NCBI RefSeq assembly: GCF_003991155.1
Contig: NZ_CP031293.1
DNA length: 64,000 nt
Strand: one strand, 5' to 3'
Source of the DNA: Escherichia coli
GTDB taxonomy: Bacteria; Pseudomonadota; Gammaproteobacteria; Enterobacterales; Enterobacteriaceae
Both the position numbers and the translations under genes were made by a program. The notes below the pieces were generated by a model. That model did no database searches. It was given only the letters and a program-made list of their open reading frames with translations, and had not been told where the DNA came from. The first letter of the stretch is position 1. Each line of letters opens with the position of its first letter. Positions 13,892-63,699 of the stretch are shown piece by piece.

Positions 13892-13903
13892 GATGGAGGA
13901 TAT

Positions 13904-16633: not shown

Positions 16634-16646
16634 TCAGGAGAAAATC

Positions 16647-19104: not shown

Positions 19105-19184
19105 AATTACAAAAACCCTAACCAATTGATGGATTTCTTTTATCTGAACTCGCTACGGCGAGTTTTGTTTTATGGAGATGATAA

Positions 19185-19352: not shown

Positions 19353-19366
19353 TGGCGGTTTTTTGG
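19343..19366 (+). terminator. Intrinsic terminator
   Basis: AGCCGCC-TGAT-GGCGGTT followed by TTTTTTGG. Confidence 0.5.
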
Positions 19367-19375
19367 GGGTAGTAG

Positions 19376-19567: not shown

Positions 19568-19691
19568 AAACCATTCACTGACAAACATTAAGAGTGGAAA
19601 TAAAGAAATCACACCGCCTCACACTCGATGAGGCCTGTTCATATCTGATAGAGCCGCTATATGGCGGTTTCTTTTTGCCTGGAGAATTAAG

Positions 19692-19883
19692 ATGACCGAT
19701 ACCAGCCTGATTCCTGAGAAAGAAGTGATGAACAAGCTCGGTGTTTCATCACGTCAGACAATCTGGAACTATACCAAACGGCACGGATTTCCGAAGCCAG
19801 TCAGAACCCACCCCAAATCATACCTTCGTGAAGCTGTTGAAGGGTGGATTCTTAACGGTGGCGTTAATCAGAAATGCTCCTGA
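19692..19883 (+). CDS. xis: Excisionase / AlpA-family DNA-binding protein
   Basis: 63 aa small HTH protein overlapping the 3' end of int on the opposite strand. Confidence 0.7.
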   Translation: MTDTSLIPEKEVMNKLGVSSRQTIWNYTKRHGFPKPVRTHPKSYLREAVEGWILNGGVNQKCS

Positions 19884-35434: not shown

Positions 35435-36415
35435 TTATTTCGCGTTGTAATTACGCAGCGCGTTACGCCCAAGCACAATCCCCGCGCCAACCATGCCGCC
35501 CAGCAGCACTGCCAGAATCAAGGTAATTGCCTTTTTCGGACTATCGCGACGAATAGGTAACGTCGGTTTCATCACATAACGGTAAGCATGAATATCAAGA
35601 TCATCAACCTTTAAGCTTTCGATATCAAGCAGGTTTTGACGAGTCTGATAGTAGTTTGGTGAGAACACCAACGGACGGGTCGCCTCATGCTTAATCATCG
35701 ACTCCAGCGCTTCGCTCCCCAAAAGGAACAACGTATCTTGTGTGATATCTTCGCCAGTCTGTTGAATCTGCGGTTTTGTCACCTGCGCCTGATTCGCATA
35801 CTGCAACGCTTCCTGAATCTGACGGATACGCAGATCTTTCTGCTCCTGCGCAACCACTTCCTGCGTTCTTAAAGAGTCCTGCAAGTTTTTCCGTCCCAGA
35901 GCAATGTTGTCCTTGAGATCCTTTTCTAACTCTTGATTCACTTTATCGTCAACTTGCTGAATGTATTGGGCCAACTTCATTTGTGCGCCCTCTGCAGTTT
36001 GCCCAACATAAGAAACAGTCAATGGTAATTGCTGGTTCTTAACAGAAGGTTCGATGGTAAGTTTTTCTGGTTCTTCCTGATTATCCAGCGTTTCTGCTAA
36101 TGCAGAGAAGGCAGAACTGAAGCGACCAATTAACGTCTCCTGCAAATCCGATACTTTCGGTGCAGCCTGACCATAGATAACATTCATGGCATTGTTATAG
36201 CCAGCAATTTGCCCCACATCGGGCTGAGTGATAATTGCTGTTGACGTCCATTTCTCCTTCGCTACTGCCAAATATCCAATAGCCAGGGCAATAGCCACAA
36301 TGACGGAAATGATGATTGTCATCTTGCCACGCCACAACTGCACTAGTAAATCAATCAAATCAATCTGTTCCGGGTCATGGTTTTGCCCAGAAACATTATT
36401 ATTTTCTACTCTCAT
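35435..36415 (-). CDS. wzzB: O-antigen chain length determinant
   Basis: E. coli WzzB, start MRVENNNVSGQ. Confidence 0.85.
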   Translation of the reverse strand: MRVENNNVSGQNHDPEQIDLIDLLVQLWRGKMTIIISVIVAIALAIGYLAVAKEKWTSTAIITQPDVGQIAGYNNAMNVIYGQAAPKVSDLQETLIGRFSSAFSALAETLDNQEEPEKLTIEPSVKNQQLPLTVSYVGQTAEGAQMKLAQYIQQVDDKVNQELEKDLKDNIALGRKNLQDSLRTQEVVAQEQKDLRIRQIQEALQYANQAQVTKPQIQQTGEDITQDTLFLLGSEALESMIKHEATRPLVFSPNYYQTRQNLLDIESLKVDDLDIHAYRYVMKPTLPIRRDSPKKAITLILAVLLGGMVGAGIVLGRNALRNYNAK

Positions 36416-36560: not shown

Positions 36561-37736
<1,176 letters not shown>

Positions 37737-37974: not shown

Positions 37975-39381
37975 TTAATCCAGCCATTCGGTATGGAACA
38001 CACCTTCTTTATCAATACGCTTATAAGTATGCGCACCAAAATAGTCACGCTGTGCCTGGATCAGGTTCGCAGGCAGAACAGCAGCACGGTAGCTGTCGTA
38101 ATAGGCAACCGCTGCGGAGAAGGTCGGAACCGGAATACCGTTCTGTACTGCATAAGCAACGACATCACGCAGCGCCTGCTGGTAGTCATCGGCAATTTGC
38201 TTGAAGTACGGAGCCAGCAGCAGGTTAGCGATCTGCGGATTTTCGGCATAAGCATCGGTGATTTTCTGCAGGAACTGCGCACGGATGATGCAGCCAGCAC
38301 GGAAAATCTTCGCGATTTCGCCGTAGTTCAGATCCCAGTTGTACTCTTCAGACGCAGCACGCAGCTGAGAGAAGCCCTGGGCGTAAGAAACGATTTTGCC
38401 CAGATACAGCGCACGACGAACTTTTTCGATGAACTCAGCCTTGTCGCCTGCTGGCTGTGCTTGCGGACCAGAGAGAACTTTAGATGCGGCAACACGCTGA
38501 TCTTTCAGAGAAGAGATATAACGTGCAAACACAGACTCGGTAATCAGCGACAGCGGTTCGCCGAGATCCAGCGCGCTCTGGCTGGTCCATTTACCGGTAC
38601 CTTTGTTAGCCGCTTCATCCAGGATCACATCAACCAGGTAGTTACCGTCTTCATCTTTTTTGGTGAAGATATCTTTGGTGATGTCGATCAGGTAACTGCT
38701 CAGTTCACCGTTATTCCACTCGGTAAAGGTCTGCGCCAGTTCTTCGTTGGTGAGGTTCAGGCCACCTTTAAGCAGAGAATAGGCTTCAGCAATCAGTTGC
38801 ATATCACCGTATTCGATACCGTTGTGAACCATCTTCACATAATGGCCTGCGCCATCGGCACCAATATAGGTAACGCATGGCTCCCCGTCTTCAGCTACTG
38901 CGGCGATTTTGGTCAGGATTGGTGCAACCAGTTCATAGGCTTCTTTCTGCCCACCAGGCATAATAGAAGGACCTTTCAGCGCGCCTTCTTCACCACCGGA
39001 GACACCGGTACCAATGAAGTTAAAGCCTTCGGCAGAAAGTTCACGGTTACGACGAATGGTGTCCTGGAAGAAGGTATTGCCACCATCAATGATGATGTCA
39101 CCTTTATCGAGATATGGTTTGAGGGAATCAATAGCAGCATCCGTGCCTGCACCTGCTTTCACCATTAACAGGATGCGACGAGGCGTTTCCAGAGATTCAA
39201 CAAACTCTTTCACCGTATAGTAAGGAACCAGTTTCTTGCCTGGATTTTCGGCAATCACTTCTTCCGTCTTTTCACGGGAACGGTTGAAAATAGAGACGGT
39301 ATAACCACGGCTTTCGATGTTGAGCGCAAGGTTGCGCCCCATCACTGCCATACCGACGACGCCGATCTGTTGCTTTGACAT
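37975..39381 (-). CDS. gnd: 6-phosphogluconate dehydrogenase (decarboxylating)
   Basis: E. coli Gnd, 468 aa. Confidence 0.9.
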
Positions 39382-39544: not shown

Positions 39545-40915
39545 TTACTTGTTCAATAACGCAAGGATAAGTTTTGTCTTTTCTTCCATCAGCGGCACAT
39601 CACCGCGCGATTCCACATTCAGGCGCACCACCGGTTCGGTGTTGGAGGAGCGCAGGTTAAAGCGCCAGTCGGCAAAGGTCATGCTGATGCCATCGGTGCG
39701 ATCCACCGCCAGCGCCTCACGGCTAAAATGCTGTTCGACGCGATTAATCGCCTCAGCGGGTTGCGCCAGTTTGCTGTTGATCTCACCGCTTGCCGGAAAC
39801 GCTGCCATCCGGTCGCGCACCAGTTCGCCCAGCGTTTTTCCTTTCAGACACACCAGTTCGGCGACCAGCAGCCACGGGATCATGCCGCTGTCGCAGTAAG
39901 CGAAATCACGGAAATAGTGGTGGGCGCTCATTTCGCCACCGTAGATGGCGTCTTCCTTGCGCATACGTTCTTTAATAAAGGCGTGTCCGGTTTTCGACAT
40001 CACCGGTGTGCCGCCCGCGGCGGTCACCACATCAACGGTATTCCAAGAGAGACGTGGATCGTGGATGATCTTCGCGCCGGGATTTTTTTCGAGGAACGCT
40101 TCTGCCAGCAGGCCGACAATGTAGTAGCCCTCGATAAACTGCCCTTTTTCGTCAAACAGGAAACAGCGGTCAAAATCGCCATCAAAGGCAATGCCCATAT
40201 CCGCGCCGTGTTTAATGACCGCATTGCGGGTGTCGTCGCGACATTCCGGCAGCAGCGGGTTAGGAATACCGTTGGGGAAATTGCCGTCCGGCGTGTTGTG
40301 CACTTTGATCAATTCCACAGGTGCGCCGAGGGCTTTAAAGCGGGCTTCGATAGCGTCCACCACCGGACCCGCTGCGCCGTTCCCGGAGTTGATCACCAGC
40401 TTGAGCGGCGTGAGGTTTTTGACATTGATATAACCGAACAGGTGATCAACGTAAGCGTCACGCAGGTTGATTTGCTGATAGCGACCGCATTTGGTTTCAT
40501 CGACGGGAGGAAAGTCGTTGGCTTCAGCCAGACGCTGGACGTCGCGCAGTCCGGTATCTCCGCTGATCGGGCGAGCCCCCTCGCGAACCAGCTTCATGCC
40601 ATTATAATCCATCGGATTATGGCTGGCGGTAACTTCGATGCCGCCATCCACGCCGAGATGGAACGTGGCGAAATAGATCTCTTCGGTGCCGGACATGCCG
40701 ATATCCAGCACATCGACGCCCGCATCCTGTAAACCTCTCGCCAGCGCCAGTTTTAAGGTTTCGCTGGTGAGGCGGACGTCACCGCCTAACACAATGGTTT
40801 TCGGTTTGAGAAATTCGCCATAGGCGCGACCAATGCGCCACGCAATATCTTCATTCAGTTCTTCGCCTAATTTCCCGCGAATATCATAGGCTTTAAAGCA
40901 GGTTAATTTTTTCAT
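39545..40915 (-). CDS. manB: Phosphomannomutase (O-antigen cluster copy)
   Basis: 456 aa; near-identical in nucleotide sequence to cpsG at 62266-63636 except the 3' about 45 nt. Confidence 0.85.
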
Positions 40916-40939
40916 ATAAAAACCTTACCAATAATAAAA

Positions 40940-41698
40940 TTATTTATGCGCAAACAATTGCATTAGTTTTGAGATTTTTCTGATAATGATAGCAATTTTC
41001 CAATTTACATTATGGTTTTTCATAACTTCTACAATTTCCTTTGTACTTGATATCGCGTTATCAATTCTGGTACTTTCCCCACCCAATCTCATCTTTACAA
41101 ATACTTGAGGAACATAAATAACTTTAATATCATCACGTTTCAAAATCCTGACCATCTGATCATAGTCTGCAGCAATCCTATAGGATAAATCAAAATATCC
41201 ATCGTCTTTATATAATTCCCTCCTCATATAGAAAGATGGATGCGGTGGTGCCCAGCCTAATGATAGCTTAGAACGTTTAAAAGGACCACTACGCCAGTAT
41301 CGTTTGATTATATCAGTTTGGTTTTTTTCGAAAAAAACCAAATCACCGTATACAACATCCGCTTTTGTCTCATGGAAACGGCTTACAATAGTTTCAATAA
41401 TATCAGGTCTTGCTAAAAGGTCATCAGAATGAACGAATCCAATAATATCTCCCGTAGATAAATTTATACCTTTATTTAAAGCATCATAGATACCGTTATC
41501 GCTTTCTGATAGACATTTGGTTACTCTTGTTGATACTTCGTTAATTAGTTTTAACGTATTATCTGTAGAACCACCATCAATAATTATATACTCTATATCT
41601 TTATAGGTTTGCAACTCTATTGACTCTAAAGTATCCCTTAAAGTCTTTTCACTATTATAAGTCACTGTAATAATACTGACTTTCATTTTAACATCCAA
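40940..41698 (-). CDS. Glycosyltransferase family 2
   Basis: VSIITVTYNSEKTL...IIIDGGSTDNT GT2 signature. Confidence 0.75.
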   Translation of the reverse strand: MDVKMKVSIITVTYNSEKTLRDTLESIELQTYKDIEYIIIDGGSTDNTLKLINEVSTRVTKCLSESDNGIYDALNKGINLSTGDIIGFVHSDDLLARPDIIETIVSRFHETKADVVYGDLVFFEKNQTDIIKRYWRSGPFKRSKLSLGWAPPHPSFYMRRELYKDDGYFDLSYRIAADYDQMVRILKRDDIKVIYVPQVFVKMRLGGESTRIDNAISSTKEIVEVMKNHNVNWKIAIIIRKISKLMQLFAHK

Positions 41699-41769
41699 TA
41701 ATAATCATAATTAAATAACGTCAGTACAGCATTACGAATAATAATGTTGCATTAGTATCCAGCATCATT

Positions 41770-43170
41770 TTAGATTCTAACAACATCATCTTCATCCAAG
41801 TAGACACCTGAACGTACCTCAATAATCTCCAAAGGGATCTTTCCTGGATTCTCAATAAAATGAGGTACACCTATTGGTATATAAGTTGATTCATTTTCAG
41901 AAACAAGAAATATTTCATCTTCATAATGGACTTTTGCTGTTCCAGAAACAACAATCCAATGCTCAGTACGATGGTAATGAATCTGTTTAGCAGTTTTATG
42001 TCCAGGATGAATAACGACATGTTTAACCTCAAATCGAGATCCTTCCGCTATAGAGTCATGACTGCCCCATGGCCTAAATATTTCACGATGCTGCAGATAT
42101 TCCGTACGGTTATTAACCTTAAGTTTTTCTACAATATTTTTTACCTGTTGAACTTTATCTTTATGCGCAACGAGAATAGCATCTTTAGTTTCAACAACTA
42201 CTAAATCTTTAACTCCTACTACACCAATTAATCTATGTTGTGAGTAAAGATAACTGTCAGAAGAATCATGAATTAATACATCTCCTCTAATTGCATTTCC
42301 ACTTTTATCTTTTCTGCTAATTTCCCATAATGCAGACCAAGAACCAACATCGCTCCAGTGGGCATTTAATGGAACTACCACAGCCTCTGTTGTTTTCTCC
42401 ATAACAGCGTAATCAATGGATTCTTCAGGGCAACAACTAAATGAGTCATTATCTATACGGATAAAATCAAGATCTTGTGTAGAGGACTTCAATGCTTGTT
42501 GGCATATTTTTAGTATGTCTGGTCTAAATTTATTCAACTCATCAATAAACACAGAAGCCCTAAACATGAATATTCCACTATTCCAAAGATAATCTCCATC
42601 TTCAAGATATTTTTTGGCCACATCTAGCTCAGGCTTTTCAACAAAAGCAGAAACTTTAAAACCATATTCATTTAAATTTTCTCCGGTTTTTATGTAGCCA
42701 TATCCAGTTTCGGGTTTGGTTGGCACAATACCAAAAGTTACCAGCTTACCTTCCTCTGCAAATTCTTTTGCAGCCAATATTGACGATATAAAGCGCTTTT
42801 GGTCTTGTATTTCATGATCGGCTGCTAGTACAAGCAGTATTGGATCCTCACCTGATGAAATCGCTTTAAGAGCAGCAAGCGCAACTGCGGGGGCTGTATT
42901 ACGACCTATCGGCTCTAGTAAAATGCCACTATTCGCTAAATTTACATTACGCATTTGTTCTGCAACGATAAAACGATGAACTTCATTACAAATAACCAGA
43001 GCAGGACGATGTTCAACCCCTTCAAGCCTTCTTAAGGTCTCTTGTAGCATAGTCAAACGACTAGTTAACGATAGGAATTGCTTCGGATATAGTGTTCGAG
43101 AAAGTGGCCACAATCTAGTTCCAGAACCACCGGCCATTACAACAGGAAGTAGCATATAAATAACCTTCAC
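41770..43170 (-). CDS. manC: Mannose-1-phosphate guanylyltransferase / mannose-6-phosphate isomerase
   Basis: AGGSGTRLWPLSR motif, C-terminal cupin; start codon ambiguous. Confidence 0.85.
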   Translation of the reverse strand: MKVIYMLLPVVMAGGSGTRLWPLSRTLYPKQFLSLTSRLTMLQETLRRLEGVEHRPALVICNEVHRFIVAEQMRNVNLANSGILLEPIGRNTAPAVALAALKAISSGEDPILLVLAADHEIQDQKRFISSILAAKEFAEEGKLVTFGIVPTKPETGYGYIKTGENLNEYGFKVSAFVEKPELDVAKKYLEDGDYLWNSGIFMFRASVFIDELNKFRPDILKICQQALKSSTQDLDFIRIDNDSFSCCPEESIDYAVMEKTTEAVVVPLNAHWSDVGSWSALWEISRKDKSGNAIRGDVLIHDSSDSYLYSQHRLIGVVGVKDLVVVETKDAILVAHKDKVQQVKNIVEKLKVNNRTEYLQHREIFRPWGSHDSIAEGSRFEVKHVVIHPGHKTAKQIHYHRTEHWIVVSGTAKVHYEDEIFLVSENESTYIPIGVPHFIENPGKIPLEIIEVRSGVYLDEDDVVRI

Positions 43171-43622
43171 TTAAAATAATTTTTTGTGTACTGATGAACT
43201 GAGGAATTAGCTAACAATTCGGCTATATCGAACCAATTGTAAGTACTATGTTGTAGTGTTGGATAGTTAATTTGATGTGGCATCAAACTAATCTCATATC
43301 CGTGTACGACATAATGAGTTGAAAAACAAGTCCCAGAAAAATTGTCGCTGTAGAAATGTTCATAAATCCCAAGAAATTTTGCTTCATTAATGCTAATTTG
43401 AACACCCAATTCTTCTAAAGTAACTCTTTTGAATGCGTTCTCGAAAGACTCATCTTTAAGAATCCGTCCCCCCGGCACAAACCAATAATTTTGTGCTGGA
43501 CGATTAAGGCGCTGACCAAGCAGCGCCTTACCATCTTCGTTTCTTATAATAAGGTCTATCGAGATTAGTGGAGTATGTTCAACTATTGATTTAAATAACT
43601 CTGTTTCTAATCTCTTGTTCAA
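43167..43622 (-). CDS. gmm: GDP-mannose mannosyl hydrolase (Nudix)
   Basis: Homolog of E. coli Gmm/NudD (RPAQNYWFVPGGR). Confidence 0.8.
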   Translation of the reverse strand: MNKRLETELFKSIVEHTPLISIDLIIRNEDGKALLGQRLNRPAQNYWFVPGGRILKDESFENAFKRVTLEELGVQISINEAKFLGIYEHFYSDNFSGTCFSTHYVVHGYEISLMPHQINYPTLQHSTYNWFDIAELLANSSVHQYTKNYFK

Positions 43623-43624
43623 TA

Positions 43625-44590
43625 TTAACTCCTAAATGAGTCAAGATTATTTATAAACCATTTATATGTTAATTCTAGTCCTTGTTTTAAATTATAACGA
43701 TATTTCCAACCCAAATTCTCAAGGCGTGTAACATCCATAAGTTTACGAGGCGAACCATCTGGTTTTGTTATATCAAAAACAATTTTTCCATCATAGCCAA
43801 CAACTAAAGCCATTGTTTCTGCCATTTCACGTATGGAACAATCAACACCAGTACCTACGTTAATATGAGATAACATTGGTTGAGTATTTTTTTTATAAAT
43901 TTCATCATCAAGCTCCATCACATATACTGATGCAGCGGCCATATCATCAACATATAAAAACTCGCGTTTTGGAGTTCCCGTTCCCCAGACAACCACTTCA
44001 TTTAAACCAAGTTCCTTTGCTTCATGAAAACGCCGCATAAGCGCTGGAATTACATGTGAGTTATTGGGATGAAAATTATCATTCATACCATATAAGTTAG
44101 TAGGCATTACACTGCGATAATCACATCCATATTGGCGATTATAAGATTCACATAGCTTTATACCTGCTATTTTGGAAATAGCATAAGGCTCATTAGTAGG
44201 CTCAAGAGTTCCCGTCAAAAGTGCAGATTCTTTCATTGGCTGTTCTGCAAACTTTGGATAGATACAACTTGACCCTAAGAATAATAGTTTCTTTATGCCC
44301 GCTTTGTAAGATGAGTGAATAATATTGCTTTCAATAAGAAGGTTCTGATAAATAAATTCAGCTGGAAAAGTGTTATTAGCATGAATTCCTCCTACTTTTG
44401 CTGCTGCAAGGTAAACCTGATCTATTCTCTCTTGCTCAAAAAAACATTCAACATCCTTTTGAACTGTCAAATCGAGTTCTTTGTGAGTTTTGACAATTAA
44501 CTCAACATCATTACGTGCTAATAATTGACGACAAATAGCAGAACCAACCATCCCACGATGTCCAGCCACAAAAATTCGCTTCTTGGTCAT
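43625..44590 (-). CDS. fcl: GDP-L-fucose synthase
   Basis: 321 aa SDR, Fcl-like. Confidence 0.9.
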
Positions 44591-44593
44591 ACT

Positions 44594-45715
44594 TTAACGC
44601 TCCAAAGAGACTGCCACGTCAAAACCATGGCTTTTAAGAAGTGCATGCTGTTTAGCTTTTTCTAAATCACTAGCCACCATTTCTGCACACATTTCTTCAA
44701 CTGTAATCTCTGGCTCCCAACCCAAGACATTTTTTGCTTTTGTTGGATCACCAAGAAGAGTTTCAACTTCTGCTGGTCGAAAATAACGAGGGTCAACGCG
44801 AACAATAACATCACCAATATTAACACCAACGGCGCAATCTGATGTTTTATTTACAACAAATGCAATCTCATCAACACCAGTACCGGAAAACTCAAGTTCA
44901 AGTCCAACTTCTTTAGCAGACATACGGACAAATTCACGTACAGATATTTGTTTGCCGGTGGCAATAACAAAGTCTTCTGGCTGGTCTTGTTGAAGCATCA
45001 TCCATTGCATACGAACATAATCTTTCGCATGCCCCCAATCGCGTAAAGAATCCATGTTGCCAAGATATAAGCATTTTTCTATTCCCTGCGATATATTAGC
45101 TATAGCACGTGTGATTTTACGTGTTACAAACGTTTCCCCACGACGTGGGGATTCATGATTGAACAAAATACCGTTACATGCATACATTCCATAAGACTCA
45201 CGATAGTTTACAGTGATCCAATATGCATACAGTTTAGCTACGGCATAAGGTGAACGAGGATAGAACGGCGTTGTCTCTTTTTGTGGAACTTCCTGAACTA
45301 ATCCATACAATTCAGAGGTTGACGCCTGATAAAATCGGGTTTTTTTTTCTAATCCCAAAAAACGAATAGCTTCCAATAATCGTAAAGTACCTATAGCATC
45401 AACATCAGCTGTATATTCTGGGGATTCGAAGGAAACAGCTACGTGACTCATTGCGCCAAGATTATAAACTTCATCAGGTTGAACTTCAGATAATATCCGA
45501 GTCAAATTAGAAGTATCTGTTAAATCACCATAATGAAGTTGTAATTTTAAATTACGATGGTGTGGGTCTTGATATATATGATCAATACGGTCAGTATTAA
45601 ACAAGGAAGATCGACGTTTTATTCCATGAACCTCATAGCCTTTTTTAAGCAGAAATTCTGCCAAGTAGGAACCATCTTGCCCGGTAATTCCTGTAATTAA
45701 AGCTTTCTTACACAT
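44594..45715 (-). CDS. gmd: GDP-mannose 4,6-dehydratase
   Basis: 373 aa, [15 protein letters not shown] motif. Confidence 0.9.
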
Positions 45716-45725
45716 AAATAACCTC

Positions 45726-46733
45726 TCAAAACTTAGATAGTGATTTATATAGATTATATGTTTCGGAGAAACACTTCCCCCATGAAAATTTATTAGATTG
45801 CGCTAATCCTTTATTTTTTAATTCATTAGCGTTAGCTTCTACACTTAATAAAGCTGAGAATAAACTTTCAATTGATACTTCTTCGACTAAAATCGCACTA
45901 TCCCCCACAACCTCGGGTATTGATGATCTATTTACGGCTATCACAGGACAGCCAGTTCGCATAGCCTCAAGCAAGGGAATTCCAAACCCTTCATATTCTG
46001 AAGGATAGATTAAGCAATAAGCCGAATTATATAATATATTTAGTTTTTCATTTGATACCTTCCCTAAGTACTGGAATCTTTCTGGAAGATATTCAGATAG
46101 TAACTTCATTTCTGCTTTATTTAAACCACCTCCGCCGACTATTTTAAGATTAGTATCAAAAAGTTTAGAAATGGCTTTAACTGCAAGCTCAAAATTTTTA
46201 TATCCTGAACGAGCACCGACAAAAAGCACAAAATTTTCTTTTTCTAGATTTAAGTGTCTATAATCTTCCGATACACCATTATGAATAACATGTATCTTTT
46301 TTTCATCAACCTTAAAGAAATTAATTAAATCCTTGGCTGTATTATTAGAGACACAAATGATTGCATCGCTATGTTTCACAGCCCATCTTTTTTGTAAGCT
46401 ATGAACATTGCGCCGAAGTCCTTTCATATACAATTCATATGTGAAATCGTGGACCGTGGTCACAACCGCATATTCCCCATCTTTCGGAACCCGATAATAT
46501 GTAGAATGAAATATACTGTAATCTGAATCACTTTTTAATGCTTCAAAACATCTATATCGTTCTAAAAACCGGCATGGCCGATGGAGATCATCATTGTGAT
46601 TTTCATTTTTATCATTAAATTGAATGAACTTGTATTCGTCATTTTTTAATCTCTTAATGATTTCTTCAAAGTATACAGTGATACCACCATATGATTGTAA
46701 ACTTTTCACAATCCCATCATATAATATTTTCAT
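45726..46733 (-). CDS. Glycosyltransferase family 1 (GT4-like)
   Basis: [19 protein letters not shown] motif. Confidence 0.75.
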
Positions 46734-46801
46734 TTTTTGTTTTCATATATATAGATAACAATACAGTAAGCAATGAAATGGATGATTATAATTGTTTCAA
46801 T

Positions 46802-47818
46802 TTACTCTTTATATCCATTTGGATTCATTGTTTGCCATCTCCATGCATCTTCCACCATATTATTAAGAGTCCTTTTAGCAACCCAACTTAGCTGCTCGTT
46901 TGCTAAGGAAGGATCGGACCAACATTCAGCCACATCTCCATTTCGCTCAGAAACGATACGGAAAGGTATATCGCGTCCTGTTTCCAGTTTAAAAGCGTCG
47001 ATGATATCTAACACACTATAACCTTGACCAGTGCCTAAATTAAAAACTTTAAGCCCCTGGTTTCTATTGAGATTTTTTAAAGCGGCAAGATGCCCCTCAA
47101 CTAAATCGACTACATGGATATAATCTCTTACACCTGTTCCATCTTTTGTCATATATTTATTACCAAAAACATTTAGATAGGGTAATTTTCCAATTGCGAC
47201 TTGCGCAACATAGGGAAACAGGTTATTAGGAGTTCCTAAAGGATCTTCTCCAATTAATCCAGTCTCATGAGCACCTACAGGATTAAAATATCTTAGTATT
47301 GTGATATTTGCGTCGCTATTCGCGTTACAAAAATCACGCAATATATGTTCCACCATAAACTTTGAACGACCGTACGGATTGATCACCTCACCGACAGGGT
47401 GTTTTTCAGATATTGGAACATAATGAGGATTGCCATAGACAGTAGCAGACGAACTAAAAATTAGATTAGAAATATTCGCTTTCTGCATTTCATCAAGTAA
47501 TATTAGAGTCCCCAAAAGATTTGTGTCGTAATATTCTAATGGTTTTTTAATGGACTCGTTAACAGATTTTAAACCCGCAAAATGCATTACAGTAGAAACA
47601 TTATATTTTGAAAAGATATTTTTTAATATATGTCTATCTCTAATATCACCACGTAATTTTTTTATCTTAGATAAGCAAATTTCCTCTACTCGTTCTAGAG
47701 ATTTTGGAGAGGAATTGCAATAATTATCTAGCGATATAACATCATATCCATTTTGCAATAAAGTTAATATAGCATGTGAGCCAATATAGCCAGCCCCACC
47801 AGTCACAAGTATGCTCAT
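46802..47818 (-). CDS. gne: UDP-sugar 4-epimerase (GalE/Gne family)
   Basis: TGGAGYIGSH Rossmann motif, YGRSK catalytic motif. Confidence 0.8.
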   Translation of the reverse strand: MSILVTGGAGYIGSHAILTLLQNGYDVISLDNYCNSSPKSLERVEEICLSKIKKLRGDIRDRHILKNIFSKYNVSTVMHFAGLKSVNESIKKPLEYYDTNLLGTLILLDEMQKANISNLIFSSSATVYGNPHYVPISEKHPVGEVINPYGRSKFMVEHILRDFCNANSDANITILRYFNPVGAHETGLIGEDPLGTPNNLFPYVAQVAIGKLPYLNVFGNKYMTKDGTGVRDYIHVVDLVEGHLAALKNLNRNQGLKVFNLGTGQGYSVLDIIDAFKLETGRDIPFRIVSERNGDVAECWSDPSLANEQLSWVAKRTLNNMVEDAWRWQTMNPNGYKE

Positions 47819-47838
47819 ACTTTAATAGCTCCAATACC

Positions 47839-48906
47839 TTAATTTTCTTGACTATTGGCTCGATTGATCAAACTCATCCACTGAGCACTAACTATTTCTT
47901 CTGTATAATGTCTATTCACGAATAGGAATCCTGCATTTCCGTGTTCGGTTCGTTTAACATTATCTTCAAAGTAAGTTAGTTTTTCCTGAAATTCAATTTG
48001 AGATTGACACACAAATCCGCCACCCGATGAAGAAATCACGCTACTTGTCCCTCCAGATATATCCATTGAAATTACAGGTAATCCGTAGGACATAGCTTCA
48101 AGTATTGTAACAGGAAAACATTCAAAGTATGAACCGGATACAAAAACATCACTTTTTGCCAAAAAAACATCTGTGTTTAAACTCGGTCCATGAAAGTGTA
48201 TTTGGTTGTTATTCTTATATTTAGATTTGAGATACTCCAGCTCTTGACCACCTCCTACAATGTGTAAAACATACTTTTTTGTAGACGGGTGATTTATTAC
48301 TGCATTAATTAACCTTTCAACTCCTTTATCTTTAACAATCCGACCAATATAAATCAAATCAAGAGTTTCTTTTCCTTGATGTATGCGCTTATATTTTTGC
48401 GTTTTGATTGAATTTGGTATAATTACAACCCTTTTACAAAAAGTAAACTTATCTTTTTCCTTGTGAGAATTACAAACTACTACAGCTTTTTTATTAAGAG
48501 ACAAAAGAAATTTAAATACTTTTCTCCAAAAAATACTATTCTTGTCAAATGGATAATGTTCCCAGCAAATAATTTTATTCTTATTATACCGAAAAAAACC
48601 AATCAATAACAATAATGATGATGTAGCTATATCCGTGGAAATTATTAATTCAAGGTCTTTACTTTTGGCACTCAAAAAAAACAAATATTTAATGTAAAAC
48701 CTTAATTTGCTTTCTTCATATGCAGTATTGTCTTGGAATAAGTAGGTTTTCCGATTATCTTCTCTAACTTGTATCTCTTGTGCGTTTATTGCTGAAAAAC
48801 ATCTCACTTGTAGGCTGTTTTTAGTTAATATATCAATTAGATTTTCAACTGCTTTCTCAGTGCCACCTATTTTATTTTCATACAGCTTAAAGACTCCAAT
48901 GGACAT
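47839..48906 (-). CDS. Glycosyltransferase family 1
   Basis: EAMSYGLPVIS motif. Confidence 0.7.
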   Translation of the reverse strand: MSIGVFKLYENKIGGTEKAVENLIDILTKNSLQVRCFSAINAQEIQVREDNRKTYLFQDNTAYEESKLRFYIKYLFFLSAKSKDLELIISTDIATSSLLLLIGFFRYNKNKIICWEHYPFDKNSIFWRKVFKFLLSLNKKAVVVCNSHKEKDKFTFCKRVVIIPNSIKTQKYKRIHQGKETLDLIYIGRIVKDKGVERLINAVINHPSTKKYVLHIVGGGQELEYLKSKYKNNNQIHFHGPSLNTDVFLAKSDVFVSGSYFECFPVTILEAMSYGLPVISMDISGGTSSVISSSGGGFVCQSQIEFQEKLTYFEDNVKRTEHGNAGFLFVNRHYTEEIVSAQWMSLINRANSQEN

Positions 48907-48907
48907 T

Positions 48908-50143
48908 TTATTGACTCACTCTTATATATTCTGCTGATTTAACTTCTTTATTGAATAGGAATAATGAGGGCTTATACAATATATCGCACCAAGACACATA
49001 AATAATATCTTTACCCATATTTGCCTGTGCCAAATTTATGATTGAACATGCGGTAATGAGTATTAAGAAGATCAGATGCTTACATAGTTTGCTAATTTTA
49101 TTAATATCGTAGGAGAAAAATATATAACTATATAATAACACCCAGAAAATGGAAAATCGATAAAATAAATCAGGCGATAACGATAAAAGGCATATCAGCA
49201 AAAGAAGTAAACTGCAAAAATTTTTGATTTGTGACTCTTGCCTCGTCATTTTTTTATTAAATAAAATTAAATAGATAAAAGTAAAAATAAAAAACACTGA
49301 CGGTAATATGATCTTATTCAAGATATATTCATTAGTGCTCAGCAAGCTATTGCTTATGCCTATGGTTACAGAGTCCATATATTCGGGAAAGTAAAAACCT
49401 AAGCTTTCCAATAATGGCCTAATCAATTGAAATAGCAAAGAAGATATTAACCCATCATGGTTAAGGATTAGAACTAATATTATTAAATACAATATTGTTT
49501 TGTTAAGTCTTATTAATTTGCTAACAAAAAAAACACCTAGCAATAGTATTGCGCTGGGATGAATACAACATGAAATAATTGCAGAGAATATAATTTTTTG
49601 TGACTTATACCTATTATTTTCACTGGTGAAATACTGTATAATCATATAAAGCATAATACTAAATGCAAGATATTGCCGCAATGAACTAGCTATAGCAAAA
49701 AATGGGATTACGCTTATTAGAATATATAAATATATACATCTATGAGATAATTCCGGATTGTATTTTTTAATGTAATTAACATATATATTAAAATAAAAAA
49801 TATATGATAAAAATGTTGAAAAAAAAGGTAAAAATTCTTTTTTTATTCCTAAAGATTTAAATAAATAAATAACAGTATTTATTGTAATATATCTATTGTC
49901 ACTATTTTCAAAAACTTTGTTTAGTGATGTTTGACTAACATATAAATATGTTTCATAATGCCTAGTCAAATCCCAATTTTCATAAGGTATTAACAAAAAT
50001 GCTAGTACCCCTAGCATAAATGAACATACATAAACACTCCATCTGGCCCCATTAATCATTTCAATCATTGCTAATAATAAAGCAAGAGGCAAATAAATTA
50101 TTGAAATAAATGAAGCACTAATTTTTATGTTTCTATTAATCAT
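48908..50143 (-). CDS. wzy: O-antigen polymerase
   Basis: 411 aa polytopic membrane protein, very AT-rich. Confidence 0.65.
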   Translation of the reverse strand: MINRNIKISASFISIIYLPLALLLAMIEMINGARWSVYVCSFMLGVLAFLLIPYENWDLTRHYETYLYVSQTSLNKVFENSDNRYITINTVIYLFKSLGIKKEFLPFFSTFLSYIFYFNIYVNYIKKYNPELSHRCIYLYILISVIPFFAIASSLRQYLAFSIMLYMIIQYFTSENNRYKSQKIIFSAIISCCIHPSAILLLGVFFVSKLIRLNKTILYLIILVLILNHDGLISSLLFQLIRPLLESLGFYFPEYMDSVTIGISNSLLSTNEYILNKIILPSVFFIFTFIYLILFNKKMTRQESQIKNFCSLLLLLICLLSLSPDLFYRFSIFWVLLYSYIFFSYDINKISKLCKHLIFLILITACSIINLAQANMGKDIIYVSWCDILYKPSLFLFNKEVKSAEYIRVSQ

Positions 50144-50865
50144 CTTTTTATAACTTTTCTCATAAATAGGTAAATATCTGCTAACGCCGCATATAATTTC
50201 CCGTTTCTTTTCTTTCGGATTTGTCTCGCTTCCTCCAATGCTAATTTTACATTTTTAGCGCTAAGGCCGGCATTTCTCATCGAAGAGATATTTTTATCAA
50301 TATAATGAAAGATATAACCTTGTTTCTTCAATTTTAGCAAAAGATCATAATCAGAAGCAATTTTATAGCTAGTATTAAATAAATTTTCTCTGTGGATATC
50401 TTTTCTAATAAATGTGGCCGGATGGCTTAAATTCATATCTATATGTAGTTTCCAGTCTTTAGGCCTCCGGACCTGAATAACATCCAAGCTATCAGCCTCT
50501 ACCAAAGACATATTTCCATAAATAACATCATATTTATTTTCTTTCATTACTTTTATTACTTGACATAATACATCTTTATTATAAAAATCATCAGCGTTTA
50601 TAAATCCTATATAATTTCCAGATGCTTTTAACACACCTTTATTCATTGCATCATATATACCATTATCATTTTCAGAAATGATATATGAAATTTCATTTTT
50701 GTAAGAATTAACAATATTTAGAGTATTATCCGTTGATGCACCATCAATTATAATATATTCAATGTCATCATTGCAGTTTTGTGATAAGACACTTTTTATA
50801 GTATCTTCGATATACATTTCGCCATTGTACACAACGGTAACTATTGTTAAAGTTGGTTTATTCAT
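50140..50865 (-). CDS. Glycosyltransferase family 2
   Basis: LTIVTVVYNGE...IIIDGASTDNT. Confidence 0.75.
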   Translation of the reverse strand: MNKPTLTIVTVVYNGEMYIEDTIKSVLSQNCNDDIEYIIIDGASTDNTLNIVNSYKNEISYIISENDNGIYDAMNKGVLKASGNYIGFINADDFYNKDVLCQVIKVMKENKYDVIYGNMSLVEADSLDVIQVRRPKDWKLHIDMNLSHPATFIRKDIHRENLFNTSYKIASDYDLLLKLKKQGYIFHYIDKNISSMRNAGLSAKNVKLALEEARQIRKKRNGKLYAALADIYLFMRKVIKR

Positions 50866-50873
50866 TGTTAGCC

Positions 50874-52109
50874 CTACAATAAATTTAAATTATTTAATTT
50901 ATTTGTTTTCTTAATCAAAAAGTAAAATCTCGCCATTATTATAAACTCAGTTGAAATAACTCCTATTGCTGTACCAACTCCTGAGTATTCATTAGTCAAA
51001 TAAGTAATTATCAGTAGGCCTATTAATCCACTGGTAGTAATAATTTTTGTAAATTCTTTTTTCATACCAATAGGGATCATTACTAAAATTGCAATATAAT
51101 TACTTACCGTAACTATTGCTGGAGTAAAAGCTAAAACTTTGAGTATTTCTAAAGATTCATGATACGTTTTTCCATACATGATTAAAATTATATCGTCTGC
51201 AAAAAAGTAAAGAAATATGGAAAGTACGAACATCAGTGAAAATTGCCATCGAAACACTTTCCTGGCTAATAATAGTCCATCGTCATGATTATCCTTCATT
51301 ATATAAGTTACTCTAGGAAAAACAGCTTGGGTTATAGGACCAATAACGCCTTGTAGTGCAAGCCTAATTTTATCTGCAGCGATAAAATATCCCACTGCAG
51401 TTGTTCCTGATAATGCACCTAATATTATTGTTGAACTAGTAGTATAAAGGCTTATTGCTGCAGAGGAAATGAAGTAATGCCATCCATCATAAATTAACTC
51501 TTTCATTTTGGATAAGGATGGTGGTACCCATATTATTTTTTTAAGAGAAAATAAAAAATATGTAGATATTATACCTGCAATAACTGTTATTGATGATTGT
51601 ATTGTTATCGCTATACCAAGATCCTTTTCACTTTTAACCAATAAAAATGTTAAACATAGTGTAAGTAAGCGTGCGGAAAACATACTTATCGCTATTCCTA
51701 ACATTTTTTCCAGCCCTTGAAAAAACCATACTGGATATATTAAATTTCCTACGACAGATATGTATGCAAGAATGATAAATTTAATTTGGTAATCAATGAT
51801 ATTCAATTCCGAAATTAAATAAATAATTAACAAACCAAGAGATGCTGCAATTATTTTGATAAACGTTACATTCCAAAAAACTTTACTTATGGAATCAGTA
51901 TTTTCCCTTGATATTGATATGATTTTGGGCGCTGAGTAGTTAAATCCGTAATCAATAAATAATATAAAATATTGGACCACAGCAAAACTATACCCATATA
52001 TCCCGTATCCTGTAGGTTCAAGGATCCTGACAAGATAAGGCAGTGTGACCAATGGAAATATATAATTGCCACCTTGAACGCTTAATAAATAGATGATGTT
52101 TTTTAACAT
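50874..52109 (-). CDS. wzx: O-antigen flippase
   Basis: 411 aa polytopic membrane protein, first gene after JUMPstart. Confidence 0.75.
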   Translation of the reverse strand: MLKNIIYLLSVQGGNYIFPLVTLPYLVRILEPTGYGIYGYSFAVVQYFILFIDYGFNYSAPKIISISRENTDSISKVFWNVTFIKIIAASLGLLIIYLISELNIIDYQIKFIILAYISVVGNLIYPVWFFQGLEKMLGIAISMFSARLLTLCLTFLLVKSEKDLGIAITIQSSITVIAGIISTYFLFSLKKIIWVPPSLSKMKELIYDGWHYFISSAAISLYTTSSTIILGALSGTTAVGYFIAADKIRLALQGVIGPITQAVFPRVTYIMKDNHDDGLLLARKVFRWQFSLMFVLSIFLYFFADDIILIMYGKTYHESLEILKVLAFTPAIVTVSNYIAILVMIPIGMKKEFTKIITTSGLIGLLIITYLTNEYSGVGTAIGVISTEFIIMARFYFLIKKTNKLNNLNLL

Positions 52110-52189
52110 AACGAGCCTACGTACTTAACAAGTCTTATTTTGCACGATAGTTTACAATTTGTTAAGTAATATGGGATAAACATTTAATT

Positions 52190-52228
52190 CACGCTACCGC
52201 CCCTGGCTCAACAGCTACCAGCGTACTG
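52190..52228 (-). promoter_or_regulatory. JUMPstart element with ops (GGCGGTAGCGTG)
   Basis: Minus strand CAGTACGCTGGTAGCTGTTGAGCCAGGGGCGGTAGCGTG upstream of wzx. Confidence 0.6.
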
Positions 52229-52481
52229 CATGCATGTCCTAGTTGTACCTAGCATTAACCGTTATGGTTAGTTCGAAAAGCTTAACTCTGAACGTTTTAC
52301 CAAATCGCTTCAGAGATGGAGAAAATCTCAGCCTCCCACAATAAATGCCTATTGAAAAGTTATTGTTACTCATATTTAGAACGGTATAAAGAAAGAATGA
52401 GGCAATGAGTACAATTAGCCCCACGAATCCTCACCGCCGTTATAATTTTCTTATCAACCGTTACATCCGGTCAGATTTTCA

Positions 52482-53375
52482 TTATTCGCTTAACAGCTTT
52501 TCAATACCTTTACGGAACTTCGCCCCTTCTTTCAGGTTGCGCAGTCCATACTTCACAAACGCCTGCATATAGCCCATTTTCTTGCCACAATCGTAACTGT
52601 CACCGGTCATCAGCATTGCATCAACGGACTGTTTTTTCGCCAGTTCAGCAATGGCATCAGTCAGCTGAATACGCCCCCATGCACCAGGTTGAGTGCGTTC
52701 AAGTTCCGGCCAAATATCGGCAGAAAGCACATAGCGACCAACGGCCATGATGTCTGAGTCCAGCGTCTGCGGCTGATCCGGTTTTTCGATAAATTCAACA
52801 ATGCGGCTGACTTTGCCTTCACGATCCAGCGGCTCTTTGGTCTGAATAACGGAGTATTCAGAAAGGTCACCCGGCATACGTTTTGCCAGCACCAGGCTAC
52901 GGCCCGTTTCATTGAAGCGCGCAATCATGGCAGCAAGGTTGTAGCGCAGCGGGTCGGCGCTGGCGTCGTCGATCACTACGTCTGGCAGTACCACGACAAA
53001 TGGGTTGTCGCCAATGGCGGGTCGTGCACATAAAATGGAGTGGCCTAAACCTAAAGGTTCGCCCTGACGCACGTTCATAATGGTCACGCCAGGCGGACAG
53101 ATAGACTGCACTTCCGCCAGCAGTTGACGCTTCACGCGCTGTTCAAGGAGAGATTCTAATTCATAAGAGGTGTCGAAGTGGTTTTCGACCGCGTTCTTGG
53201 ACGCGTGAGTTACCAGGAGGATTTCTTTGATCCCTGCAGCCACAATCTCGTCAACAATGTACTGAATCATTGGCTTGTCGACGATCGGTAGCATCTCTTT
53301 GGGTATCGCCTTAGTGGCAGGCAACATATGCATCCCAAGACCCGCTACCGGTATAACTGCTTTTAAATTCGTCAT
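52482..53375 (-). CDS. galF: UTP-glucose-1-phosphate uridylyltransferase
   Basis: E. coli GalF, 297 aa. Confidence 0.9.
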
Positions 53376-53617
53376 TATTTTCCTACCTCTAAGTGACTGA
53401 TAGTGCGTAAATTATTGCCATAGATTAGCCAAACGGTATGGCTATATACCAAAGCTTAGTTCCGCATAACTTTGATTAAACCTTGCGATAACACTACACA
53501 CCATCAGCATCTGGGTTACTCGGATTACTCGGAATTCCGCATACTGATAATTTAATCAGTACCTCTTTCCGAATAATCGTAGTCCAACCTGGTCCTTTTT
53601 TCTCTGACTCGTCTGCA

Positions 53618-54613
53618 TTACTCAGAAACAAACGTTATGTCGTCTTTTTTGGCATGGACGAATTCATACTGCAGAGTTCGATCCAGACCTTGCGACAGCG
53701 TATACGGTGCCACAAAACCTGAAGAATGCACTTTCGTTGCGTCAAACTGTGTTGTTGCGCAGAATTTTTTCACGCGCACTGAGCTGACAGCGTATTTTTT
53801 GCCCGTAATTTTGCTCAGGATATCAAAACAATATCCCCCCAGCATTCCTAGTGGGTAAGGCAAGTGCATAGAAGGGATCTTTTTGTTCAGGCTTTGTTCA
53901 ACTTCAGCAACCAACTGGTTCATGTTCAGGTCTGGCTTATCAACGTAGTTATAAACCTCATAACCTGCGGCAACATTCTTCAGTTTGTACTTGATAAACT
54001 CAACAATGTTTCCAACATAAGCCATGGACTTATAGTTAGTCCCTGCGCCCACCATCATAAACTTGCCGCCAGCGATCTGTTTCAGCAAGTTATAGACGTT
54101 ACCGCGGTTGCGTTCACCGAAGATAACGGTAGGACGGATGATGGTTAATGAACGTTCTGTTGGTGCTTTGTTATACCATTCACGCAGCACTTCCTCTGCC
54201 TGCCACTTACTTTTGCCGTAGTGGTTGAAAGGGTCGTGTGGATGGTTTTCGTCAGGGTTGTGTTTGTTCAAACCATAAACAGCAACGGAACTGGTAAAGA
54301 TGATATTTTTAACGCCATTTTTTTCCATGGCAGCCAACACATTGCGGGTACCCTGAACGTTGACATCATAATAGAGAGAAGTAGGGCTGACGTCATCGCG
54401 GTGTTCCGCTGCCAGTAGCACAACAGTGTCAAAACCGGCTAACGCCTGGTCGAGTGCCTGTTGATCACGAACATCGCCAATCTGTGTGATTTCTGGATAA
54501 AAGTGGCTCTGCTGTTTGTCCAGGTTCTTGATATTAAAGTCAGCAATTGCCGTTTCAAGTAGTCGGGTTCCTACGAATCCGGAAGCTCCTATGAGCAAAA
54601 CGTTATCGTTCAT
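53618..54613 (-). CDS. gne: NAD-dependent sugar epimerase (gne-like) between galF and wcaM
   Basis: LLIGASGFVGTRLL Rossmann motif; position matches the gne locus recalled for some O serogroups. Confidence 0.7.
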   Translation of the reverse strand: MNDNVLLIGASGFVGTRLLETAIADFNIKNLDKQQSHFYPEITQIGDVRDQQALDQALAGFDTVVLLAAEHRDDVSPTSLYYDVNVQGTRNVLAAMEKNGVKNIIFTSSVAVYGLNKHNPDENHPHDPFNHYGKSKWQAEEVLREWYNKAPTERSLTIIRPTVIFGERNRGNVYNLLKQIAGGKFMMVGAGTNYKSMAYVGNIVEFIKYKLKNVAAGYEVYNYVDKPDLNMNQLVAEVEQSLNKKIPSMHLPYPLGMLGGYCFDILSKITGKKYAVSSVRVKKFCATTQFDATKVHSSGFVAPYTLSQGLDRTLQYEFVHAKKDDITFVSE

Positions 54614-54770: not shown

Positions 54771-56165
54771 CTACTCCCTCCGTTCCGGCAATCTAAAGTT
54801 AATCTTCTCCACATTAACAATATGGTGATTAATCCTGTCGATATCGACGGAGCTTTGCCCTTTTTCATTCACTGCATGAATATTCGTGAGTGAAAGCAGC
54901 GTTTTACGCTTTGCCATAAAAACGCCTCGAACGTCTTTGCGCATGTCAAAGTTCATGCTCAATGCGGGTCCAACTGAGGATTCCTGCATCACATTGATAT
55001 TTCGCATAAAAAGATGTTGCGGTTTGTTGTGTAACTCCAGCGACGCACGCTTCATCTCAATGTTAGTCAGCGCCACAAAGGAGACAGCATTCCCGGCGGA
55101 GATTTGAATGCCGCGCAATTTATAAGCAAGATGAGTATTATCCAGTTGAATATCATTCACTCGGAAATTCTGCGGTATCGAGAGATATTTGCCTTTAATT
55201 ACCCCATAGCCGATTAACATCCCGGCACTATTAATCATTTCAATATTATCAATCACAAAGTTGTCACAACCATAAATAGCAACTGTGGCGTTATCAATAC
55301 CTGCTTTCTTACTGAAATCCGGCGTGATATTACGAGCTTTGATATTACGGATAACAAAATGTTTACCATTTTCAACATGGATCAGTTGCCGACAATCCGA
55401 TCCCGTGATATTCGCCACGACAAAGTTTTTCACTGCCTGGTTTTCCGGATAATTATTATCGTAGGTACTTCCCGCAAGGCCTATGCCGATGCCCCAGTTG
55501 ATTTTGCCGTTGGTACAGTTAATGCGCTCAATGAGATGGTCGGATATCAAAATATCACTGTCGTTAATCGCCACGTTCCATTCAATAGCGTCGCCCTGTA
55601 AGTCGCTGAACTTACAGTTGGTGATGTTGGCACCGATTATCTGGTTATGAAATCCCTGGCGTAAGATGGCGTAATTAGCGTGGCTAACGGTCAGGTTATC
55701 GATGGTCAGGTTGTGCATGACCCGTTTGTTTTTGCCGCCGATATAAATCTGCGTTACCGGACCAAAGCCGCTCATCGCCAGCCCTTTGATGGTGCAGTCA
55801 GAACCACGCACATCCAGGGTGATGTTATGCATACTGCCGCCCTCCTCCCCTGTCACCTGGCTGCCGTCCTGTAAGACAAATCGCCCTCTGCCGTTGCCGC
55901 GCAGGCTTCCAAGGATGTGTAACGTTTTACCTGCAGGAATGAAGATGCCGGTGTTGATATTGTCACAAACCAATCCGGCAGGCACGACGACCGTTTGCCC
56001 TTCGCTGAAGGCTTGTTTAAATGAGGCGATCCAGTCGTGAGGGTTGTAGTCGTTAATGTTAACGCTTTGTTGAGCGGGAAGTGCGCGGGCGAAAGGCGTA
56101 TGGAGGAAGGCAAGCACAGAGCTTGCCGTCAGGAAGGTGCGTCGGGAGAGTTTTTTAAATGGCAT
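54771..56165 (-). CDS. wcaM: Colanic acid biosynthesis protein WcaM
   Basis: 464 aa with signal peptide, parallel beta-helix-like. Confidence 0.85.
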
Positions 56166-58724: not shown

Positions 58725-59325
58725 GCCGTTTTTTGCCTGATGCGACGCTAACGCGTCTTATCAGACCTACAAGATCCGAGCACAGAACCGTAGGACGGAT
58801 AAGGCGTTCACGCCGCATCCGGCATTCAGTGCCTGATGCGACGCTGACGCGTCTTATCAGGCCTACAAGACCCGAGCACAGAGCCGTAGGACGGATAAGG
58901 CGTTTTACGCCGCATCCGGCATTCAGTGCCTGATGCGACGCTGACGCGTCTTATCAGGCCTACAAGATCCGAGCACAGAACCGTAGGCCGGATAAGGCGT
59001 TTTACGCCGCATCCGGCATTCAGTGCCTGATGCGACGCTGGCGCGTCTTATCAGGCCTACAAGACCCGAGCACAGCCCCCCAGGACGGATAAGGCGTTTT
59101 ACGCCGCATCCGGCATTCAGTGCCTGATGCGACGCTGACGCGTCTTATCAAGCCTACAAGATCCGAGCACAGAACCGTAGGCCGGATAAGGCGTTTTACG
59201 CCGCATCCGGCATTCAGTGCCTGATGCGACGCTGGCGCGTCTTATCAGGCCTACAAGACCCGAGCACAGCCCCCCAGGACGGATAAGGCGTTTTACGCCG
59301 CATCCGGCAACCGTTGCCGGAACCG
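58725..59325. repeat. Tandem REP/BIME array (about six units of about 98 bp)
   Basis: Repeated GCCTGATGCGACGCTGACGCGTCTTATCAGGCCTACAAG...GGATAAGGCGTTTACGCCGCATCCGGCA units. Confidence 0.8.
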
Positions 59326-63636: not shown

Positions 63637-63699
63637 ATCGTTACCCTTTTTCAGGCAATAGTTGGCCCTGACCGAAACGGCCAATTTTGTTTTTGTCGT

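Follow-up and report, generated by a model that had tools for sequence, protein, structure and literature searches.

Gene content of the O-antigen locus

The window analysed here is a 64,000-nucleotide stretch of the Escherichia coli contig NZ_CP031293.1 (assembly GCF_003991155.1), in which positions 39545–54613 almost certainly represent the O-antigen locus of serogroup O11 (Og11), with a Wzx/Wzy-dependent pathway, as judged from gene content and from comparison with public genomes. The interval runs from the 3′ end of manB (39545) to the start codon of a 331-amino-acid epimerase, gnu (54613). In the list of open reading frames (ORFs), every gene across 35.4–58.7 kb lies on the minus strand, with the order, 5′ to 3′, wcaK, wcaL, wcaM, gnu, galF, JUMPstart/ops, wzx, GT2, wzy, GT4, gne, GT4, gmd, fcl, gmm, manC, GT2, manB, gnd, ugd and wzzB, where GT2 and GT4 are glycosyltransferase (GT) families. 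G+C content is 0.25–0.40 across approximately 41–52 kb vs approximately 0.5 in the flanks, low G+C being usual in O-antigen clusters, and galF is separated from wzx by a spacer of 372 bp. The features of the locus and its flanks, with the matches obtained for each and, where stated, the NCBI (PGAP) annotation, are as follows.

54771–56165, minus strand: wcaM (PRK10123, 1016 bits)
53618–54613, minus strand: gnu, undecaprenyl-diphosphate (UndPP)-N-acetylglucosamine (GlcNAc) 4-epimerase, 331 amino acids (PF01370, E 8.5e-31; 331/331 amino acids identical to E. coli O157:H7 WP_000999466.1; function also named by PGAP)
52482–53375, minus strand: galF, conserved gene flanking the O-antigen locus on its 5′ side (TIGR01105, 685 bits, cut-off 659)
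52190–52228, minus strand: JUMPstart with ops GGCGGTAG at approximately 52194–52201 (Rfam RF01707, 57 bits, gathering score 35, E 5e-12)
50874–52109, minus strand: wzx, O11 O-unit flippase, 411 amino acids (Pfam Polysacc_synt, E 5e-57; exact protein named 'O11 family O-antigen flippase')
50140–50865, minus strand: GT2 glycosyltransferase, 241 amino acids, WdaD homologue (PF00535, E 8e-29)
48908–50143, minus strand: wzy, O11 O-antigen polymerase, 411 amino acids (Pfam EpsG, E 3e-12; exact protein named 'O11 family O-antigen polymerase')
47839–48906, minus strand: Pfam Glycos_transf_1 glycosyltransferase, treated as GT4-type, 355 amino acids, WdaE homologue (PF00534, E 3e-26; PGAP 'glycosyltransferase')
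46802–47818, minus strand: gne, GalE-clade UDP-hexose/UDP-N-acetylhexosamine (HexNAc) 4-epimerase, 338 amino acids (PRK10675, 449 bits; TIGR01179, 428 bits)
45726–46733, minus strand: GT4 (PGAP) or Glycos_transf_1 glycosyltransferase, 335 amino acids, WdaF homologue (PF00534, E 4e-29; PF13439, E 6e-16)
44594–45715, minus strand: gmd (TIGR01472, 585 bits, cut-off 415)
43625–44590, minus strand: fcl, GDP-L-fucose synthase (NF047922, 538 bits, cut-off 500)
43167–43622, minus strand: gmm, GDP-mannose mannosyl hydrolase (Nudix), TTG start (PRK15434, 195 bits, cut-off 146; PGAP length equal)
41770–43155, minus strand: manC, mannose-1-phosphate guanylyltransferase (TIGR01479, 740 bits; PGAP length 1386 nt, the start given being that of PGAP, with the longest ORF reaching 43170)
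40940–41686, minus strand: GT2 glycosyltransferase, 248 amino acids, WdaG homologue (PF00535, E 1e-29)
39545–40915, minus strand: manB, phosphomannomutase, last gene of the cluster (PRK15414, 1049 bits, cut-off 801)
37975–39381, minus strand: gnd, conserved 3′ flank gene (TIGR00873, 771 bits)
36561–37727, minus strand: ugd, upstream of wzzB
35435–36415, minus strand: wzzB, O-antigen chain-length regulator, downstream of ugd (PRK15471, 606 bits; PGAP length 981 nt)

Scores above the cut-offs of the curated models were obtained for manB, manC, gmd, fcl, gmm, galF, the GalE-type epimerase, wcaM, gnd and wzzB. The complete GDP-fucose pathway (manB, manC, gmd, fcl and gmm), the GalE/Gne-type 4-epimerase, and the wzx and wzy genes that a first-pass annotation of the bare sequence had placed in the cluster are thus all present. 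The same annotation had counted two GT2 and two GT1 enzymes; the former stand as Pfam Glycos_transf_2 proteins, while 'GT1' holds only as the Pfam name Glycos_transf_1, one of these two proteins being assigned by PGAP to GT family 4.

Assignment to serogroup O11

The serogroup-specific block (45726–52109) was recovered with 100% identity over 100% of its length from 65 of 5,426 complete E. coli genomes, and in each of the 65 NCBI annotates both wzx and wzy as 'O11 family'. The seven cluster-specific proteins (wzx, wzy, the four GTs and gne) are exact matches to public proteins found on approximately 770 to more than 1000 contigs. Over a wider interval (34726–63109), the window differs from strain 2016C-3878 by 3 mismatches in 28,384 bases (99.989% identity), with all genes intact and of the annotated lengths. 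Gene order is the same as in the O11-genotype complete genomes, and the O11 gene set, namely the GDP-L-fucose (Fuc) pathway, gne, four GTs, wzx and wzy, is present at the galF–gnd location. The O11 cluster (strain G1207, GenBank HQ388393) and its polysaccharide were published together with those of Salmonella enterica O16 (Li, Perepelov et al. 2011, FEMS Immunol Med Microbiol 61:258); the comparison made here runs through the 65 identical complete genomes rather than directly against the type-strain record HQ388393. The match among serogroup clusters is unambiguous, and the O11 unit contains both Fuc and N-acetylgalactosamine (GalNAc), in line with the sugars expected from the gene content. 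A Wzx/Wzy-dependent pathway, as proposed in the first-pass annotation, is supported by the flippase and polymerase genes, by the JUMPstart/ops element upstream of wzx and by the absence of a wzm/wzt-like (ABC transporter) gene among the ORFs between galF and gnd.

Serogroups O86, O127 and O128 use GT11 alpha-1,2-fucosyltransferases, and these three were considered as candidates along with two further GT11-bearing fucose serogroups, O90 and O126. All five were dropped because none of the four GTs matched GT11 or GT10, neither family appearing among the Pfam matches of the O11 cluster proteins, and because the DNA search returned O11 alone. The source strain is assigned to O-genotype O11, a group reported to be frequent in China in extraintestinal pathogenic E. 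coli of porcine origin (PMC4578781).

One point weighs against extending this assignment from genotype to serotype. The cluster of the provisional serogroup OX19 is 98–99.9% identical to that of O11, and the two do not cross-react serologically, for reasons left unexplained (DebRoy et al. 2016, PMC4732683); the serological phenotype therefore cannot be read from the cluster alone, and the window cannot separate O11 from OX19. A serological split despite the same cluster points to a modification locus elsewhere in the genome. That the strain is OX19 rather than classical O11, its antigen altered by a modification gene outside the cluster such as a phage-borne glucosyl- or acetyltransferase, would agree with this near-identity and with the presence of a prophage arm in the window (1–21.1 kb), but is very unlikely. 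O11 isolates numbered 527 vs 28 for OX19 in the collection of DebRoy et al. 2016, the cluster block matches, at 100% identity, genomes in which wzx and wzy are named O11, and the 10 prophage ORFs scanned (8253–21042, the rest of 1–21.1 kb being outside the scan) comprised integrase, recombination, repressor and replication genes, with no gtr or acyltransferase match and no other phage-borne O-antigen modification gene among them.

Published work already covers the cluster, the structure of its polysaccharide, its counterpart in Salmonella O16 and what the epimerase upstream of galF does. Gene content read from the raw sequence predicted the sugar composition correctly, and the result adds no new biology.

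The O11 repeat unit and the two epimerases

According to a synthetic-chemistry paper (PMC4906483, which cites Li et al. 2011), the O11 repeat is a pentasaccharide in which four linkages are alpha and one is beta. The reducing end is occupied by residue A, beta-D-GalNAc, consistent with a unit whose first sugar is GalNAc; residue B is alpha-L-Fuc, coupled to the sole free hydroxyl (O-3) of a 4,6-O-benzylidene GalN3 acceptor; residue C is alpha-D-mannose (Man); residue D is an alpha-linked sugar that bears a 2-azido and later an acetamido group; and residue E is alpha-linked and derives from a 2-O-benzyl thioglycoside donor referenced to Lonn 1985 (PMC4906483). The first-pass prediction of a unit of four to five sugars with fucose and probably GalNAc or galactose (Gal) was borne out as to number, fucose and GalNAc, whereas no evidence was found for Gal, which goes unmentioned in the text of that paper, and the mannose had been missed. 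As the unit contains mannose, GDP-Man is also used directly. Residue E is probably a second L-Fuc, because the donor of Lonn 1985 is reportedly the classic thiofucoside donor. It counts against this account of the unit that residues D (GalNAc or GlcNAc) and E are identified from the synthetic donors and from the presence of gne.

The epimerase gene outside the cluster, between galF and wcaM, was correctly located in the first-pass annotation; its description there as unrelated to the in-cluster epimerase does not stand, as the two proteins share 27% identity (E 1e-19) and are both extended short-chain dehydrogenase/reductase (SDR) enzymes. The O157:H7 protein to which it is identical is Z3206, which places it in clade D in the scheme of Cunneen et al. 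2013 (PMC3682973), and the O157:H7 gene occupies the same wcaM–gnu–galF slot. NCBI names the protein N-acetyl-alpha-D-glucosaminyl-diphospho-undecaprenol 4-epimerase, and the gene is carried by 1,314 of the 5,426 complete E. coli genomes. The O157 enzyme converts UndPP-GlcNAc, the WecA product, to UndPP-GalNAc and has no activity on UDP-GlcNAc (Rush et al. 2010, as summarised in PMC3682973). Across serogroups, gnu lies upstream of galF where GalNAc is the first sugar, with presence or absence as expected in 104 of 115 (Cunneen et al. 2013, in whose Table S2 O11 is absent). O86 needs both Gnu and an in-cluster Gne, which coexist because GalNAc is both the first and the second, internal, sugar (PMC3682973).

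On this identity, the outside epimerase is identified as Gnu and is predicted to be functionally part of the O11 pathway, making the UndPP-GalNAc first sugar, and by analogy O11 would repeat the two-epimerase logic of O86, with Gnu serving the first GalNAc and Gne the internal residue. The alternative that the 331-amino-acid protein is a soluble UDP-GlcNAc 4-epimerase duplicating the in-cluster enzyme goes back to the original 'Gne' annotation, a UDP-GlcNAc 4-epimerase name given for O55 and O157 (history in PMC3682973), and draws on a weak similarity of this SDR epimerase to GalE (TIGR01179, E 5.6e-20, far under cut-off). It is very improbable given the substrate preference of the identical O157 protein and the tracking of GalNAc as first sugar by gnu, and because knockout of either epimerase in O86 changed the lipopolysaccharide, so that the two functions differ.

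The in-cluster Gne shares 51% identity with K-12 GalE in a gap-free alignment and has Cys at the position of K-12 Tyr299, making it a GalE-clade sequence with the small gatekeeper residue (Cys299) expected of a clade A UDP-GlcNAc 4-epimerase. The Tyr299-to-Cys change in GalE, reportedly studied by Thoden and colleagues in 2002, is said to enlarge the pocket for N-acetylated substrates, and pocket size is linked in general terms to the use of such substrates. GalE and Gne constitute one clade and are inseparable by overall sequence; this, and the GalE name given to the protein by PGAP and NCBIfam, would allow an enzyme acting on UDP-glucose and UDP-Gal only, in a unit with Gal in place of a second galacto-configured HexNAc. 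We consider this unlikely given the Cys in place of Tyr299, the housekeeping galE that E. coli also carries, and the composition of the synthetic pentasaccharide, with two 2-acetamido sugars, Fuc and Man, and galactose unmentioned in the text of PMC4906483. Supply of UDP-GalNAc for the internal residue, the Gne role, fits these features of the in-cluster epimerase.

Glycosyltransferases

Formation of an alpha-L-fucoside from GDP-beta-L-fucose requires an inverting enzyme, and formation of an alpha-D-mannoside from GDP-alpha-D-mannose or of an alpha-D-HexNAc from UDP-alpha-D-HexNAc requires a retaining one. The enzyme count of the cluster, two inverting (GT2) and two retaining (GT4), fits the four alpha linkages of the unit as read here (two L-Fuc, one D-Man and one D-HexNAc). 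Because the alpha-L-Fuc linkages need inversion and the GT2 enzymes are the only inverting ones, the GT2 proteins become the fucosyltransferase candidates, and it is somewhat more likely than not that both are alpha-L-fucosyltransferases. The GT4-type proteins (47839–48906 and 45726–46733), taken as retaining, are candidate alpha-Man or alpha-GalNAc transferases.

The two GT2 proteins (50140–50865 and 40940–41686) are 36% identical to each other, and both have as best match in the PDB WrtF of R. tropici (PDB 9OMH–9OMN), a GT-A/GT2 alpha-fucosyltransferase described in 2025. WrtF leads the next PDB match by 7–8 orders of magnitude in E-value in both cases (6.5e-22 vs 1.4e-14 for 50140–50865; 9.8e-25 vs 2.1e-16 for 40940–41686). 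The best NCBIfam match of 50140–50865 is WcaE, under cut-off, the WcaE model scoring the two GT2 proteins at 100 and 65 bits vs an equivalog cut-off of 369. WbdO and WcaE are listed as GT2 fucosyltransferases in the WrtF paper, and K-12 WcaE carries the annotation alpha-1,4-fucosyltransferase. In an alignment of the GT2 proteins with WrtF, O157 WbdO and K-12 WcaE, Asp66, His142, Asp167, the final Asp in the DxD region and the motif GIYDAxNKG are invariant (residue numbers here and below, including Asn143 and Phe191, are those of WrtF). Comparison with WbdN, the O157 beta-1,3-glucosyltransferase, was uninformative, as just its N-terminal nucleotide-binding half aligned to the GT2 proteins (34–38% identity over 90–138 amino acids).

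Two points speak against a fucosyltransferase assignment. The O11 and O16 GT2 proteins have Pro at the position of WrtF Asn143 and Met at that of Phe191, residues that the WrtF paper calls conserved among GT2 fucosyltransferases (the latter as Phe/Tyr191), and a biochemical test of any GT of the O11 cluster was not found in the literature. In our MAFFT alignment, WbdO and WcaE likewise lack Asn at position 143, having Gln there. The chances appear even that the two GT2 paralogues form a fucosyltransferase subgroup in which His-Pro and Met replace His-Asn and Phe191. In WrtF, the His-Asn pair and Phe191 are the residues proposed to hold the donor fucose in position; if such a subgroup exists, they would not be needed for fucosyl transfer.

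Regulation and proposed assembly

The JUMPstart/ops element between galF and wzx is recognised from its sequence as an RfaH-dependent antitermination site at the operon head, of the kind usual in O-antigen operons. As JUMPstart marks the head of the operon, galF and gnu, the latter just upstream of galF, lie outside the O-unit operon.

In the proposed scheme, WecA, encoded outside the window, would make UndPP-GlcNAc, which Gnu would epimerise to UndPP-GalNAc. ManB, ManC, Gmd and Fcl would provide GDP-Man and GDP-L-Fuc, and Gne, with its Cys299 gatekeeper, would provide UDP-GalNAc. The two inverting WcaE/WbdO/WrtF-like GT2 enzymes would then transfer the alpha-L-fucoses from GDP-beta-L-Fuc, and the two retaining GT4 enzymes would transfer alpha-Man and alpha-GalNAc. 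Wzx would flip the completed unit and Wzy would polymerise it, forming the single beta (GalNAc) linkage; we infer that this linkage between units is the one made by Wzy because, until polymerisation, the first sugar remains in alpha linkage to UndPP. Chain length would be set by WzzB, and RfaH acting at ops would allow read-through of the long, low-GC operon.

Neighbouring regions of the window

At the 3′ end of the cluster, manB shares 96.5% DNA identity with the colanic-acid paralogue cpsG (62304–63638), located 22 kb away. This identity, together with the G+C content of manB (0.52–0.54), unlike that of the remaining low-GC cluster, suggests that the two paralogues have undergone recombination or gene conversion with each other. 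In the colanic-acid cluster, a 97-bp unit is repeated in tandem at 58734–59309, between wcaK and wzxC (5.9 copies, 93% matches), and the array is also present in 2016C-3878; the unit looks like repetitive extragenic palindromic (REP) or bacterial interspersed mosaic element (BIME) sequence.

Positions 1–21100 constitute one arm of a lambdoid prophage integrated beside sbcB (21224–22648). This arm encodes an integrase (19864–21042), Ead/Ea22, DUF551 proteins, a single-stranded DNA-binding protein (SSB), a Rad52-type recombinase, a CI-like S24 repressor (11539–12189), replication protein O and a DnaB-type helicase. In the near-identical O11 genome 2016C-3878, dacD, sbmC and the pdu operon are found in place of the prophage, and colinearity ends at 21240. 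A prophage ORF at 13047–13730 on the plus strand, located between the repressor and the recombination genes, matches Pfam Nmad5 ('nucleotide modification associated domain 5') strongly and over its full length (E 5e-72), and the neighbouring ORF (13850–14872, 340 amino acids) has no Pfam match.

Comparison with known systems

Compared with the E. coli O11 cluster of strain G1207, the cluster in the window has the same genes in the same order, with no detectable difference through the identical complete genomes. The likeness to O157 is confined to the identical Gnu protein in the same wcaM–galF slot; the other O-unit genes are unrelated, O157 using perosamine genes. O86 has, as in the window, an in-cluster Gne beside Gnu, whereas its remaining O-unit genes are unrelated. 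WrtF is approximately 30% identical to both O11 GT2 proteins and has in common with them the invariant residues and motif noted above, while the O11 proteins carry Pro143 and Met191.

A close parallel outside E. coli is S. enterica O16 (serovar Gaminara; protein set from Table S1 of PMC6712391), in which galF–gnd gene order and content are the same as in the window (wzx-wdaD-wzy-wdaE-gne-wdaF-gmd-fcl-gmm-manC-wdaG-manB) and every protein has a counterpart. Amino acid identities to the O16 proteins are listed below.

wzx vs O16 wzx: 68%
GT2 (50140–50865) vs O16 WdaD: 67%
wzy vs O16 wzy: 56%
GT4 (47839–48906) vs O16 WdaE: 57%
gne vs O16 gne: 69%
GT4 (45726–46733) vs O16 WdaF: 70%
gmd vs O16 gmd: 86%
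fcl vs O16 fcl: 68%
gmm vs O16 gmm: 50%
manC vs O16 manC: 67%
GT2 (40940–41686) vs O16 WdaG: 63%
manB vs O16 manB: 90%

Gene names of the O16 cluster are also shared with S. enterica O39, for which the printed WdaG sequence is that of O16 and in which wdaF is present as well (PMC6712391, Table S1). Because O39 WdaG is identical to O16 WdaG and wdaF also occurs in O39, the cluster seems, at its fucose-pathway end, to carry a module found in more than one Salmonella serogroup.

The relationship between O11 and O16 has been published (Li et al. 2011, by the title of that paper). Despite the conserved gene order, the amino acid identities span just 50–90%, which indicates that the two clusters share an old common origin rather than a recent transfer.

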